Source of the DNA: a virus
Lineage: Duplodnaviria > Heunggongvirae > Uroviricota > Caudoviricetes
DNA: 11,595 nucleotides
IMG/VR virus record: IMGVR_UViG_2698536392_000001
Coordinates: 1 to 11,595 of that record
Reading direction: 5' to 3' (one strand)
The notes under the pieces are model-generated. The model ran no database searches, was not told where the DNA came from, and saw nothing but the letters and a program-made list of their open reading frames with translations. Both the position numbers and the translations under genes were made by a program. Positions 3,074 through 4,709 of this stretch are shown here, piece after piece. The stretch's first letter is position 1. Each line of letters starts with the position of its first letter.

Positions 3074-3226
3074 TTAGCTGGTATTTTTGGCAAGCCAGCG
3101 ACGTGCGCCAGCTTCGGTTTTAAACGATTTGCTTTTGGTATACGTCATGGCGGTGAATGTGCCGTCCTGATTGGGAAACACGCCACATACCAGAGATTCG
3201 TTGTTGCCAAGATCGATAGTATCCAT
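3074..3226 (-). CDS. Small Rac-type early protein (50 aa; YdaF/YdaG-like position)
   Basis: Internal ATG at 3226 with GAGG 5 nt upstream gives MDTIDLGNNESLVCGVFPNQDGTFTAMTYTKSKSFKTEAGARRWLAKNTS; the longer 71-aa track ORF lacks a good ribosome-binding site. It lies just downstream of a strong leftward promoter. Confidence 0.5.
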   Translation of the reverse strand: MDTIDLGNNESLVCGVFPNQDGTFTAMTYTKSKSFKTEAGARRWLAKNTS

Positions 3227-3406
3227 GTTGACCTCATTTCCCCTTAACGCCGGGTGGCGGAACGTTTTATCTACTGCGCTTTGTATCAATCAACAACTGC
3301 CGTCATGTTCGTATGCCTCAGGCTGGCTACTTAGCCCTGTTCAGTGGCTGGATAACTCGAGGTATTGTCCTGCCGTTCTCTGGTGGGGCGTTGTTTGGAT
3401 ATGCTT

Positions 3407-3448
3407 ATTAAACACAATACGTTTTCTTATGTCAACACGAAATGTGTT
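3407..3448 (-). promoter_or_regulatory. Leftward early promoter (PL-like) with overlapping operator-like inverted repeat AACAC-N5-GTGTT
   Basis: On the minus strand: TTGACA (plus 3435-3430), a 17-bp spacer, then TTTAAT (plus 3412-3407). The inverted repeat AACACgaaatGTGTT at 3434-3448 overlaps the -35 and has the same architecture as the site at 4009-4023. Confidence 0.55.
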
Positions 3449-3477
3449 TTGTGGTGGATGTCATATGATGATGGTAC

Positions 3478-3501
3478 AAAAAAGCCCGCTGATAGCGGGC
3501 T
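3478..3501 (-). terminator. Rho-independent terminator downstream of the repressor gene
   Basis: Minus strand reads AGCCCGC-uauca-GCGGGCU followed by UUUUUU (plus-strand A run 3478-3483); it sits 30 bp past the repressor stop. Confidence 0.7.
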
Positions 3502-3531
3502 GATTGGCATATTACTGTGATAGCAAGATCA

Positions 3532-3951
3532 TTACTCCGGTGGGGGATTATCTTTAAGCCTGCCTCTCAAATATTTTTCTACATACTCATCGATTTCTTT
3601 TAGCCGGACTTCAAATAGCTCAATCATTCGTTGTTGTTCTGAGCCCGGTAGCTGGTTAAACAACTCAAGAAGTTTTCGTTGGGATTCATTTAACCACAAT
3701 TCAGAAGATTCCTGTTCTCCAAATAGGAGCTCAGGAGGAGATATGCCAAGTGCCTTTCCCAATACGACAGCGTCATGCACTCCAACATTTCTGCTGCCCG
3801 CCTCATAGTTACCTATACGCGATTGCGTCCATCCGCAGATTTCAGCAAGTTTTCCTTGAGATAAACCAAGCTTCTGCCTGCGCTCTTTAAGACGCATTGC
3901 AATTTTGTCATTGAGCCTACTAGCGGCAATTTTTTCGTTTTCTTTTTCCAT
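3532..3951 (-). CDS. Prophage immunity repressor, XRE-family HTH, no S24 peptidase domain (RacR-like position)
   Basis: 139 aa; HTH segment LGLSQGKLAEICGWTQSRIGNYEAG; divergently oriented to the Cro-like gene; AAGGA ribosome-binding site. Short length and absence of an Ala-Gly/Ser-Lys autocleavage module suggest a non-LexA-like repressor. Confidence 0.75.
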   Translation of the reverse strand: MEKENEKIAASRLNDKIAMRLKERRQKLGLSQGKLAEICGWTQSRIGNYEAGSRNVGVHDAVVLGKALGISPPELLFGEQESSELWLNESQRKLLELFNQLPGSEQQRMIELFEVRLKEIDEYVEKYLRGRLKDNPPPE

Positions 3952-4047
3952 TGCATCCTTGTATCACGAATCGTGATTTACATAAAACACAAAACAGCTT
4001 GACCATATAACACAAGGTGTGTTTAAAATTGTCATCGGAGGTTTTCA
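3952..4047. promoter_or_regulatory. Divergent promoter/operator region of the immunity switch
   Basis: Perfect 15-bp palindrome ATCACGAaTCGTGAT at 3963-3977, 12 bp from the repressor start codon. Inverted repeat AACACaaggtGTGTT at 4009-4023 lies between a rightward -35 TTGACC (3999-4004) and -10-like TTTAAA/TAAAAT (4022-4029). GGAGG precedes the Cro-like ATG by 7 nt. Confidence 0.6.
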
Positions 4048-4290
4048 ATGAACAAAATTTCAACATATCGAAAACAGCTTGGGCTGTCTCAAAGACAACT
4101 TGCTGTTCAGTTAGGGTGGATACAAAGCCGACTGGCAAATTACGAAGCAAATTTTCGTACCCCTGGACTAGAGGAGTGCAGAAAAATTGTTTCTACCCTT
4201 AATCGGCTTGGCGCTCGTTGTGGACTTGACGATGTATTCCCCCCAGACGGTAAGCATAGCGAAAACAGCATAGGAGCGGTTGATTCATGA
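4048..4290 (+). CDS. Cro-like XRE-family HTH protein (YdaS-like position, 80 aa)
   Basis: HTH segment LGLSQRQLAVQLGWIQSRLANYEA; first gene of the rightward operon; its stop overlaps the next start (ATGA). Confidence 0.75.
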   Translation: MNKISTYRKQLGLSQRQLAVQLGWIQSRLANYEANFRTPGLEECRKIVSTLNRLGARCGLDDVFPPDGKHSENSIGAVDS

Positions 4291-4709
4291 AAATCAGGCA
4301 TGAGCATATCGAATCAGTGTTGTTAGCCCTGGCTGTTGAAAAAGGGCAGGCATGGGTAGCCAATGCCATTACTGAAGAATATCTGCGCCAGGGGGGCGGC
4401 GAATTGCCCCTTGTACCAGGCAAGGACTGGAACAATCAGCAGAATATCTATCACCGTTGGTTGAAAGGTGAAACGAAAGCGCAAAGGGAAAAAATTCAGA
4501 AACTGATCCCTGCGGTTCTGGCAATTCTTCCGCGCGAGCTGCGTCACCGACTCTGCATCTTCGATACCCTGGAACGCCGTGCATTACTGGCGGCGCAGGA
4601 AGCGTTGAGTACGGCAATTGATGCGCATGATGAGGCAGTCCAGGCCGTTTACCGGAAAGCACATTTCAGCGGTGGTGGGTCGCCCGGCGATTCTGTCGTA
4701 GTGCATTGA
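4287..4709 (+). CDS. ydaT: YdaT-like protein (140 aa; CII-position regulator reported toxic when derepressed in Rac)
   Basis: 140 aa, the same length as Rac YdaT as I recall it; translationally coupled to the Cro-like gene; position between cro-like and the replication genes. Confidence 0.6.
   Translation: MKIRHEHIESVLLALAVEKGQAWVANAITEEYLRQGGGELPLVPGKDWNNQQNIYHRWLKGETKAQREKIQKLIPAVLAILPRELRHRLCIFDTLERRALLAAQEALSTAIDAHDEAVQAVYRKAHFSGGGSPGDSVVVH

Follow-up and report, generated by a model that had tools for sequence, protein, structure and literature searches.

Genes of the immunity region

The window analysed here, a stretch of DNA of 11,595 bp, carries the immunity region of a Rac-like lambdoid E. 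coli O157:H7 prophage, and the locus is 100% identical to the O157:H7 Z869 locus annotated in RefSeq. Of 5,426 complete E. coli genomes, at least 153 contain this immunity type, and a related form occurs in Salmonella. The core of the region consists of two divergent genes, 96 bp apart and both matching HTH_3, which encode a repressor and a Cro-like protein. The genes that matter for the following are:

3074-3226, minus strand: DUF1391 gene (Pfam DUF1391, E 8e-29), opening gene of the leftward (PL-type) operon, with kil, ydaE, recE, recT, ralR, xis and int after it
3532-3951, minus strand: repressor gene, 139 aa; N-terminal lambda-CI/434-like five-helix HTH and C-terminal two helices (DicA-family tail)
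4048-4290, plus strand: Cro-like gene, 80 aa; Pfam HTH_3; recognition helix QSRLANYE, against QSRIGNYE in the repressor
4287-4709, plus strand: ydaT, encoding a CII-like regulator; Pfam YdaT_toxin; PHROG 163 CII-like activator, E 3e-36

HTH_3 is the sole Pfam domain match of the repressor. No S24 peptidase domain was found in it by Pfam, and the C-terminus of its AF2 model (pLDDT 85) consists of two helices. A fold search with this model returned solved-structure matches for the N-terminal HTH domain only, with no specific match for the two-helix tail; SinR came up as a loose analogy only, at an rmsd of 8 Å. The protein is 29% identical to DicA over 129 aa, that is, over its full length (E 2e-15). 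Its N-terminal domain is 31% identical to that of lambda CI (E 2e-6), aligned from residue 1 and including LGLSQ and the QS that starts helix 3, and 59% identical to that of mEp213 cI, and both of these alignments end after the N-terminal domain. Judged by these alignments, the repressor is a DicA-family protein with a lambda-CI-like DNA-binding domain. The recognition helices of lambda CI and Cro start with Gln-Ser, as does the recognition helix of the repressor. The repressor and Cro-like HTH domains are 45% identical to each other (E 2e-10) with nearly identical recognition helices, and the Cro-like protein is 55% identical to mEp213 Cro.

Palindromic sites around the repressor gene

The first-pass annotation had described a pair of matched AACAC-N5-GTGTT sites, AACACGAAATGTGTT at 3434-3448 and AACACAAGGTGTGTT at 4009-4023, on the two sides of the repressor gene, together with a separate perfect palindrome, ATCACGAATCGTGAT, at 3963-3977. 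All three are found at these positions. Searched on both strands of the 11,595 bp, AACAC-N5-GTGTT has exactly two exact matches, those at 3434-3448 and 4009-4023, against a chance expectation of 0.01, and a count of two or more was reached in 0 of 200 shuffles. The broader pattern AWCAC-N5-GTGWT has five matches in the window at one mismatch or fewer, four of which lie inside the two control regions.

The palindrome at 3963-3977, ATCACGAaTCGTGAT, has the form ATCAC-N5-GTGAT. It had been set apart as a separate kind of site, but it is a position-2 variant (ATCAC versus AACAC) of the same CAC-N5-GTG family, and a repeat search clusters the sites at 3434, 3963 and 4009 as one family. The three sites noted earlier are real, but two degenerate ones, at 3986-4000 and 3411-3425, had been overlooked. 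By sequence, all of the sites belong to one family, AWCAC-N5-GTGWT, arranged as a three-site OR and a two-site OL:

4009-4023, no strand: predicted OR1 operator, AACACaaggtGTGTT; perfect, an exact match; in the PR spacer, overlapping the PR -10
3986-4000, no strand: predicted OR2-like site, AACACaaaacAGCTT; one half-site intact; centre at -42; overlapping the PR -35
3963-3977, no strand: predicted OR3 operator, ATCACgaatcGTGAT; perfect palindrome; centre 19 bp before the repressor ATG; overlapping the PRM-like -10
3434-3448, no strand: predicted OL1 operator, AACACgaaatGTGTT; perfect, an exact match; abutting the PL -35 with a 2-nt overlap
3411-3425, no strand: predicted OL2-like operator, AACACaatacGTTTT; one mismatch; in the PL spacer, overlapping the PL -10; 23 bp from OL1

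The centres of the OR sites, two perfect sites and one half-site, lie at 3970, 3993 and 4016 with a spacing of 23 and 23 bp, or at -19, -42 and -65 relative to the repressor ATG. The second operator of the same sequence family is present at the leftward early promoter, upstream of DUF1391-kil-recET. OL1 and OR1 are 575 bp apart from centre to centre, which agrees with the earlier estimate of about 575 bp, and the repressor gene and its terminator lie between them.

Promoters and terminator

The control sequences that accompany the sites are:

3407-3412, minus strand: predicted PL -10 hexamer, TTTAAT, 5/6 of consensus and without the A at position 2; read from the minus strand
3430-3435, minus strand: predicted PL -35 hexamer, TTGACA, joined to OL1 in the 12-mer GTGTTGACATAA, which lambda PL has too
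3999-4004, plus strand: predicted PR -35 hexamer, TTGACC
4022-4027, plus strand: predicted PR -10 hexamer, TTTAAA, with a 17-nt spacer; alternative TAAAAT at 4024-4029 with a 19-nt spacer
3958-3966, minus strand: predicted PRM-like extended -10, TGaTACAAG, ending 6 nt before the repressor ATG
3483-3501, minus strand: intrinsic terminator of the repressor transcript, a GC-rich hairpin followed by TTTTTT

Both of the promoters proposed earlier can be read in the window. The leftward one runs from TTGACA (3435 to 3430) over a 17-nt spacer to TTTAAT (3412 to 3407), with the 3434-3448 site overlapping its -35 by 2 nt, and the rightward one, TTGACC (3999-4004), a 17-nt spacer and TTTAAA (4022-4027), encloses the 4009-4023 site. 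By count both are near-consensus, with 11 of 12 positions matching in PL and 9 of 12 in PR, but the highly conserved A at position 2 of the -10, the base that matters most, is missing from both. A consensus promoter scan of the window called none of PL, PR and PRM because the scanner demands an A at this position, so that the promoters were assigned by eye and from their conservation. The regions of PL and PR can be aligned with each other over about 55 bp as site, TTGAC, site and TTTAA.

As the PRM-like extended -10 ends 6 nt before the ATG, the repressor mRNA is predicted to be leaderless, with its start near A3951. Leaderless messages have precedents in cI and paaR2 (PMC8630535). Toxin-antitoxin genes co-transcribed with the repressor are absent, and the repressor gene is followed by the terminator (3501-3483) and then by PL.

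Conservation

Variation was counted among 50 distinct close relatives, comprising 31 E. coli-type and 19 Salmonella-type sequences. In the half-sites of the three perfect sites, 0 of 30 positions are variable in either group. The spacers are variable at 8 of 15 positions in the E. coli-type sequences and at 6 of 15 in the Salmonella-type sequences, and the other non-coding positions at 48 of 198 and 40 of 198, respectively. By Fisher's test, the half-sites differ from the rest with p = 6e-4 (E. coli-type) and 3e-3 (Salmonella-type), and from the spacers with p = 3e-5 and 6e-4.

OL1 and OR1 each have invariant half-sites in the 50 relatives and four of five spacer columns that vary; OL1 is conserved in Salmonella, Citrobacter, Serratia, Klebsiella, Dryocola and Brenneria loci, and OR1 has many different spacers among homologous loci. 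The half-sites of OR3 are likewise invariant in the 50 relatives, and CAC-N5-GTG stands at -19/-20 in nearly every homologous locus with the repressor helix GW..SR..NYE. The OR2-like site has a conserved AACAC half and a polymorphic other half, and Serratia, Klebsiella, Dryocola and Brenneria relatives have a one-mismatch site at this position. The OL2-like site is less constrained than the perfect sites, with 5 of 10 half-site columns polymorphic, and most homologous loci of the same group have a second site at the OL2 position.

The arrangement extends to more distant relatives. In loci that encode repressor homologues of 57-84% identity (Salmonella, Citrobacter, E. coli, Dryocola, Serratia, Klebsiella and Brenneria), AACAC-N5-GTGTT stands at -66, -43 and -19 relative to the ATG and a second pair of sites follows about 90-150 bp after the repressor stop, with N5 spacers that differ between loci. 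The three-site OR layout recurs in lambda and in most homologous loci that belong to the same helix group. The distance between OL1 and OR1 ranges from about 538 to 604 bp among relatives, with no conserved helical phase, which speaks neither for nor against the OL-OR looping suggested earlier.

The promoter sequences are conserved as well. The block at 3407-3415, which contains the PL -10, shows no variation among the 31 E. coli-type sequences and has two variable positions across all 50 relatives, and the block at 4018-4033 in the PR -10 region is invariant in the E. coli-type relatives. In 17 aligned OR regions the TTGAC of the PR -35 is kept at the same position (TTGAT in L032 and L025), and TGnTAnnnn stands 6-7 nt before the repressor ATG in 17 of 17, in all specificity groups. 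The proximal half of OR3, TTTA[TC]CAC, is also conserved in every specificity group, so its conservation may partly reflect the promoter and not the operator.

Covariation of recognition helix and half-site

In a comparison of 109 distinct homologous loci, the CAC core is fixed, as are the positions and geometry of the sites, while the outer bases of the half-site track the recognition helix of the repressor. The helix xQSR[IV]GNYE pairs with AACAC in 230 of 230 half-sites, helices that start with S (SGASRVANYE, SGSSRIANYE, SAASRLANYE and related ones) pair with TTCAC or CTCAC, and the helix ATASRVGNYE pairs with GACAC, GTCAC or TACAC. With position, half-sites and spacing conserved across genera, a drifting N5 and a half-site that covaries with the recognition helix, the earlier reading of operator-type sites in a lambda-like OR/OL pair around the repressor gene is upheld. 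The short palindromes are very probably operator sites for the repressor of a lambda-like switch, real and strongly conserved.

The palindrome at 3963-3977 had been suggested as the site of the Cro-like protein or of autoregulation, and this remains reasonable for a site at the OR3 position (-19) that overlaps the conserved extended -10, although it is not a different palindrome. A stricter version would have two specificities in the switch, with the AACAC sites serving the repressor, the ATCAC palindrome dedicated to the Cro-like protein and position 2 discriminating between them. Within the E. coli and Salmonella clade, OR3 does indeed read ATCAC-N5-GTGAT throughout, with no case of AACAC, and the loci with the Cro helix GWIQSRLANYE (the window, L019 and L031) all keep ATCAC in OR3, even where the repressor is different and the other operators differ. 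However, ATCAC or ACCAC occupies the promoter-proximal half of OR3 in every specificity group and with any Cro type, where it coincides with the conserved extended -10, and the two proteins have nearly identical recognition helices. Moreover, mEp213 mixes AACAC and ATCAC halves within single sites at both OR and OL, and in lambda one site family serves both proteins with graded affinities, so a division into two specificities is unlikely. L031, which combines a Salmonella-type Cro with a different repressor and TTCAC/CTCAC operators, indicates that the specificity of Cro is not simply readable from its helix.

The pentamers might also be promoter-associated sequence, such as UP-like elements, spacer elements or -35/-10 context, with incidental palindromy. 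Every site overlaps or abuts a predicted hexamer, and GTGTT is fused to TTGAC and TTTAA in both promoters, yet half-sites that lie off any hexamer, such as those on the left of OR1 and OL1, are equally invariant. The pentamers change with the repressor recognition helix while TTGAC does not, and dyad symmetry around a 5-bp centre that drifts freely marks a site for a dimeric HTH protein and not a promoter element, which makes this explanation highly improbable. Binding by another factor, either the CII-like YdaT or a host protein, in place of the repressor and Cro-like pair can be almost wholly discounted, for although the ydaT gene lies close by and YdaT of CP-933P binds inverted repeats, its known site TTGATT-N6-AATCAA is unrelated, a candidate copy of that site lies elsewhere, and the site sequence follows the repressor helix across the 109 loci. 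The candidate copy is:

4280-4297, no strand: candidate YdaT (CII-like) binding site, TTGATTcatgaaAATCAG, at the Cro-like stop and ydaT start

It has one mismatch to the CP-933P YdaT operator and occupies the same relative place. As a YdaT site it is a weak lead, because the YdaT of the window is distantly related to PDB 8bt1 (E 2.5e-6) and the site is missing at the gene junction in most relatives.

Comparison with known switches

The window resembles lambda in its divergent repressor and cro genes about 100 bp apart, in the 17-bp operator plan with a CAC-N5-GTG core and in the second operator at the leftward early promoter. OR3, OR2 and OR1 are annotated at -19, -42 and -66 from the cI ATG in the lambda record, against -19, -42 and -65 in the window. 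Lambda OR2, tAACACcgtgcGTGTTg, is itself an AACAC-N5-GTGTT site and is fused to the PR -35 as GTGTTGACT; an AACAC half-site fused to the -35 as GTGTTGAC occurs in lambda OR2 and in one half of OL2, and GTGTTGACATAA is shared by the PL promoters of lambda and the window. The likeness extends to a repressor mRNA that is probably leaderless and to a recognition helix beginning with Gln-Ser. The window differs from lambda in its 139-aa repressor with a two-helix tail in place of the S24 autocleavage domain, in a consensus half-site of AACAC and not TATCAC, in having two recognisable OL sites only and in the replacement of CII by YdaT. OL and OR are about 575 bp apart in the window versus 2.3 kb in lambda, as the window has no rex genes.

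The repressor tail has its counterpart in DicA of the Qin prophage of E. coli K-12, a short and non-cleavable protein with full-length homology that includes the C-terminal LLELFNxLPxSEQ. Both systems have operators, predicted ones in the window, in the gap between the divergent genes and a second time at the leftward promoter, which directly follows the repressor gene and precedes a DUF1391 gene. DicA, which is without a cleavage site and under the control of an antirepressor, represses dicCp and dicBp via operators that flank dicA (PMC10448788). The Dic system differs from the window in this known antirepressor, in operators that read here as TTAG[CT]-N4/5-[AG]CTAA at other distances from the ATG, in the lack of ydaT and in a left operon with dicF and dicB.

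In CP-933P of E. coli O157:H7 EDL933, a Cro-like HTH gene is likewise followed directly by YdaT as the CII equivalent, and PaaR2 and YdaS bind OR and OL operators (PMC8630535), as the repressor and Cro-like protein of the window presumably do. The two prophages further share a leaderless repressor gene, predicted in the window, and a possible YdaT site where ydaS meets ydaT. The operators of CP-933P have a different half-site, GTTTAGTAA, and the CP-933P repressor gene is followed by the paaA2-parE2 toxin-antitoxin genes, whereas that of the window is directly followed by a terminator.

Operators of the same form occur in mEp213, a working lambdoid phage, in which a cI with a 59% identical DNA-binding domain and the helix QSRIGNYE, together with a 55% identical Cro, accompanies three A[AT]CAC-N5-GTG[AT]T sites at OR and another three at OL. 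Its PR, TTGACT-17-TTTAAT, is of the promoter type seen at the PL of the window. Stx1 phage VT1-Sakai also has annotated putative operators on the CAC-N5-GTG plan. Unlike the window, both phages have S24-type RecA-cleavable repressors of about 213 aa and lambda-type CII, N and O genes, not YdaT or Rac-type genes. A literature search on H-19B and mEp213 found no operator-level description, and one for AACAC/GTGTT operators returned primer-type matches only.

The K-12 Rac prophage with RacR, YdaS and YdaT is of the same prophage type and gene order, with recET, kil and DUF1391 to the left and ydaS-like and ydaT genes to the right. RacR was considered as a homologue of the repressor on account of this gene order and was rejected, as it has no detectable similarity (BLASTP E 2.0). 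The prophage in the window, which is inserted beside yebY-copD and not at the K-12 Rac position, is of a different immunity type from K-12 Rac.

Proposed working of the switch

The sites are very likely the OR and OL operators of a Rac-like prophage immunity switch built on the lambda 17-bp plan, in which a half-site A-W-C-A-C is followed by five central bases and the mirror half. Their existence, statistics, conservation, geometry and protein-DNA covariation support this assignment, and from it we infer binding, occupancy order, activation, the start points of the promoters and how induction proceeds, with looping between OL and OR as a further possibility. Dimers of the 139-aa repressor would bind the perfect OR1 and OL1 through the lambda-CI-like helix-turn-helix, and the weak neighbours OR2 and OL2 would probably be filled cooperatively. 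Occupancy would block RNA polymerase at PR, the promoter of the Cro-like, YdaT and replication genes, and at PL, the promoter of DUF1391, kil, recET, xis and int.

A dimer at OR2, centred at -42, would be placed to activate the leaderless repressor promoter, whereas filling of OR3, which lies over the extended -10 at -19, would switch that promoter off. As OR2 is here only a half-site whose degenerate half is polymorphic, cooperative filling and activation of PRM are assumptions. The Cro-like protein of 80 aa would most likely use these same sites but rank them differently.

Induction would be expected to proceed via an antirepressor and not via RecA-stimulated cleavage, given that the repressor is without an S24 domain, as in the case of DicA and the Gifsy repressors. 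Neither an antirepressor-like gene nor a LexA box was found in the 11.6-kb window, and the route proposed here is accordingly modelled on those two systems.

Implications and possible applications

The design of these operators is already well known, and the locus adds one more member without a new regulatory principle. The analysis provides a precise and testable operator map of a prophage immunity type, with five sites, three promoters and one terminator. The family comparison amounts to a small natural recognition code data set, in which the two outer bases change along with the residues that open the recognition helix on one fixed CAC-N5-GTG scaffold, and it could help in designing orthogonal repressor-operator pairs and in predicting cross-immunity between prophages of enterobacteria.

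The same module, consisting of the helix QSRIGNYE and A[AT]CAC-N5-GTG[AT]T operators, is found on two chassis, an SOS-cleavable S24 cI in mEp213 and a non-cleavable DicA-type tail in the window. It is conceivable, if rather doubtful, that the resident prophage repressor gives its host SOS-proof immunity to mEp213-type lambdoid phages, provided that the specificities coincide. If so, the repressor could keep co-resident mEp213-type phages repressed after DNA damage, which would give a decoy or defence role to the repressor of a "cryptic" prophage. A weaker corollary is that the repressor might touch the switch of lambda too, since lambda OR2 is an exact AACAC-N5-GTGTT site.

Sites and predicted promoters around the repressor gene

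The prophage is Rac-like and lambdoid. Two strains of E. coli O157:H7, Z869 and Z1813, carry a prophage 100% identical to the window, and 153 of 5,426 complete E. coli genomes contain at least 80% of its 1.1-kb core. Genes were assigned by annotation together with Pfam and PHROG scans, and inspection of the sequence located the three elements that a first-pass annotation had placed around the repressor gene. OL and OR denote the control regions past the repressor stop codon and between the repressor and Cro-like genes, and PL, PR, and PRM the predicted leftward, rightward, and repressor-maintenance promoters.

Features of the control regions and their surroundings
Left of the repressor gene: DUF1391, kil, ydaE, recE, recT, ralR, xis, and int
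3411-3425: OL2, degenerate site AACACaatacGTTTT, one mismatch
3435-3430 (TTGACA) and 3412-3407 (TTTAAT), minus strand: predicted PL, 17-nt spacer
3434-3448: OL1, exact AACAC-N5-GTGTT
3501-3483, minus strand: clean intrinsic terminator between the repressor gene and PL
3532-3951, minus strand: repressor gene, 139 aa, HTH_3
3966-3965 (TG) and 3963-3958 (TACAAG): PRM-like extended -10
3963-3977: OR3, palindrome ATCACGAaTCGTGAT, ATCAC-N5-GTGAT
3986-4000: OR2, degenerate site AACACaaaacAGCTT, one half-site intact
3999-4004 (TTGACC) and 4022-4027 (TTTAAA), plus strand: predicted PR, 17-nt spacer, flanking OR1
4009-4023: OR1, exact AACAC-N5-GTGTT
4048-4290: Cro-like gene, 80 aa, HTH_3, right of the repressor gene
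Right, past the Cro-like gene: ydaT (CII-like gene) and replication genes

The two exact AACAC-N5-GTGTT matches are the only ones in the 11,595-bp window, where 0.01 would be expected by chance, and none of 200 shuffles reached two. The palindrome at 3963-3977 had been described as separate from these, yet it differs from AACAC-N5-GTGTT only at bases 2 and 14, and a repeat search placed 3434-3448, 3963-3977, and 4009-4023 in one family (D1). With the two degenerate sites, both overlooked earlier, the family has five members instead of the two plus one first described, and the palindrome is OR3. Site centres lie at 3970, 3993, and 4016 in OR and at 3441 and 3418 in OL, with neighbours 23 bp apart throughout.

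Read on their respective strands, PL and PR align over ∼55 bp with a common order of elements: site, TTGAC, site, TTTAA. In each promoter, one site thus abuts the -35 and the other falls within the spacer; PL has its perfect copy upstream and PR in the spacer. Both promoters resemble the consensus closely by count of matching bases, but the most critical base, the A at position 2 of the -10, is missing. An automatic consensus promoter scan of the window called neither PL nor PR because both -10 hexamers lack this conserved A. Between PL and the DUF1391 gene, the predicted PL leader contains a GC-rich hairpin (3366-3390); the scan listed this hairpin as a plus-strand terminator-like element, and the PL transcript would be minus strand.

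Conservation and covariation of the half-sites

Fifty distinct sequences were aligned and analysed separately as an E. coli clade (139-aa repressor) and a Salmonella clade (141-aa repressor), with the outer pentamers of each 15-mer taken as half-sites and the central N5 as spacer.

Varying positions in the two clades
E. coli type (n=31): half-sites of the three perfect sites 0/30, spacers 8/15, other non-coding 48/198
Salmonella type (n=19): half-sites of the three perfect sites 0/30, spacers 6/15, other non-coding 40/198

Half-sites differed from the rest with Fisher p values of 6e-4 (E. coli type) and 3e-3 (Salmonella type), and from spacers with 3e-5 and 6e-4, respectively. At OR2, the intact half was conserved and the degenerate half polymorphic. 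The spacers (3439-3443, 3968-3972, 4014-4018) were more polymorphic than other regional non-coding DNA (24% and 20%), which may reflect affinity tuning or simply absence of constraint.

Repressor homologues with 57-84% identity occur in Salmonella, Citrobacter, E. coli, Dryocola, Serratia, Klebsiella, Brenneria, and other genera, and their loci were fetched for footprint comparison. All loci with the helix GW[TAV]QSR[IV]GNYE carry AACAC-N5-GTGTT-type sites at -66, -43, and -19 from the repressor ATG and a further pair, 23 bp apart, 90-150 bp past the stop codon; half-sites are identical and the five central bases vary from locus to locus. The exception is two Yersinia loci (L025, L026; helix GWSQSRIGNYE) with degenerate sites there (2 mismatches). 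Loci of other repressor subfamilies were added, giving 109 distinct control regions.

Recognition helix and half-site
xQSR[IV]GNYE, 58 loci: AACAC in 230/230 half-sites
S-starting helices (SGASRVANYE, SGSSRIANYE, SAASRLANYE, and related), 36 loci: TTCAC or CTCAC
ATASRVGNYE, 13 loci: GACAC, GTCAC, or TACAC

This covariation is the pattern expected if the repressor helix-turn-helix reads the sites. That the sites are instead a promoter element, or are bound by a third factor, is hard to reconcile with half-sites that track the repressor helix while the CAC core, the N5 spacing, and the -66/-43/-19 geometry stay constant across the 109 control regions. The reading of the sites as repressor operators is well supported by statistics, conservation, and covariation; binding, promoter activity, occupancy order, looping, and the way the prophage is induced are inferences.

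Alignment of the repressor's N-terminal domain with lambda CI begins at residue 1 (31% identity, E 2e-6) and covers LGLSQ and the Gln-Ser that opens the recognition helix; the helices read QSGVGALF in lambda CI, QSAINKAI in lambda Cro, and QSRIGNYE and QSRLANYE in the window. In the structure of lambda repressor on its operator (PDB 1LMB), the adenine at operator position 2, which corresponds to base 1 of our 15-mer, is contacted by Gln44, and the G opposite C4 by Ser45. Subfamilies without the Gln change exactly that outer base, which by structural analogy would fit the Gln44 contact. An AF2 model (pLDDT 85) comprises a five-helix HTH domain followed by a short and a long helix, and in a fold search the HTH domain alone matched solved structures.

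Predicted repressor promoter and OR3

All 17 aligned OR regions, from all specificity groups, carry a TGnTAnnnn extended -10 located 6-7 nt before the repressor ATG and overlapping the proximal half of OR3. This element predicts a leaderless repressor mRNA starting at about A3951. Lambda cI mRNA is leaderless, and a leaderless mRNA has been reported for paaR2 (PMC8630535). An AAGGA Shine-Dalgarno-like sequence (3952-3957) just upstream of the ATG, not conserved in relatives, would lie outside a leaderless PRM transcript and inside any transcript from further upstream, comparable to the lambda PRE/PRM duality.

OR2 at -42 would occupy the place where lambda CI activates PRM, and OR3 at -19 the place where repressor or Cro would turn PRM off, which makes autoregulation or Cro action, the roles suggested earlier for the palindrome, reasonable. 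OR3 position 2 (T for A) might make Cro favour this site, but every group has ATCAC or ACCAC in that half-site, perhaps as nothing more than the -10, and the Salmonella locus L031 couples a Salmonella-type Cro with different operators. The immunity region of L031 (GCA_006772285.1, 2380-2500) is a mosaic: over the 48 N-terminal residues compared, its Cro-like protein does not differ from that of L019, a Salmonella AACAC-type locus, and its repressor helix is different (GWSGSSRIANYE), with TTCAC/CTCAC operators.

Comparison with known systems

A well-known design recurs here in an uncharacterised immunity type. The lambda record places OR3, OR2, and OR1 at -19, -42, and -66 from the cI ATG, compared with -19, -42, and -65 in the window. 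Lambda OR2, tAACACcgtgcGTGTTg, is an exact instance of the motif, joined to the PR -35 as GTGTTGACT, and lambda PL has GTGTTGACATAA, a 12-mer found identically at the window PL. The OL1-OR1 distance is 575 bp in the window and ∼538-604 bp in relatives, with helical phase not conserved. Lambda CI and PaaR2 octamers make the looping proposed earlier plausible, and these distances speak neither for nor against it.

The repressor has full-length homology to DicA of prophage Qin (29% identity, E 2e-15), and a Pfam scan found no S24 domain in it. DicA, the experimental paradigm, represses dicCp and dicBp via operators on both sides of its own gene; it has no site for RecA cleavage, and an antirepressor relieves its repression (PMC10448788). 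Read by eye, the Qin sequence has TTAG-type dyads at equivalent places. Neither an antirepressor gene nor a LexA box was found within the window. RacR was considered as a homologue of the window repressor and ruled out, being unrelated on protein comparison.

The CP-933P PaaR2/YdaS/YdaT switch has likewise been worked out: it has operators at OR and OL (PMC8630535), and YdaT takes the CII role. Its YdaT operator is TTGATT-N6-AATCAA, and the window has TTGATTcatgaaAATCAG (4280-4297), with one mismatch, exactly on the Cro-like stop and ydaT start, where CP-933P has its OM site. This sequence may mark a PRE-like, YdaT-controlled element; it is missing in most relatives, and the window YdaT is only a distant relative of the crystallised YdaT.

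The viable lambdoid phage mEp213 (L116, JQ182733.1) encodes an S24-type cI with an N-terminal domain 59% identical to that of the window repressor and a Cro 55% identical to the window Cro-like protein. It has three A[AT]CAC-N5-GTG[AT]T sites at OR and three at OL (1370-1500, 2225-2290), and its PR, TTGACT-17-TTTAAT, is of the promoter type found in the window. Stx1 phage VT1-Sakai has annotated putative operators on the same CAC-N5-GTG plan, and the operator family is therefore not new. Of possible interest is that one specificity module is common to SOS-cleavable (mEp213) and non-cleavable (window) repressors; such sharing would predict cross-immunity, and the partners could be a viable phage and a cryptic prophage.

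Other conserved elements in related loci

A 15-mer, AACACCGGATGAGAT or ATCACCGGATGAGAT, absent from the window, is conserved, centre included, ∼170-215 nt past the repressor stop and downstream of PL in ten fetched loci of all specificity groups (L002, L003, L006, L008, L023, L024, L027-L030); it probably belongs to a conserved leader or a small gene rather than serving as an operator. Loci L009-L014 (Serratia, Sodalis, Kluyvera, Pluralibacter, Dryocola, Phytobacter) encode the same C-terminal repressor tail with an unrelated N-terminal HTH and carry dyads of the TAAAC-N5-GTTTA type, again at -66, so that the entire DNA-binding domain is swapped with tail and operator geometry retained.
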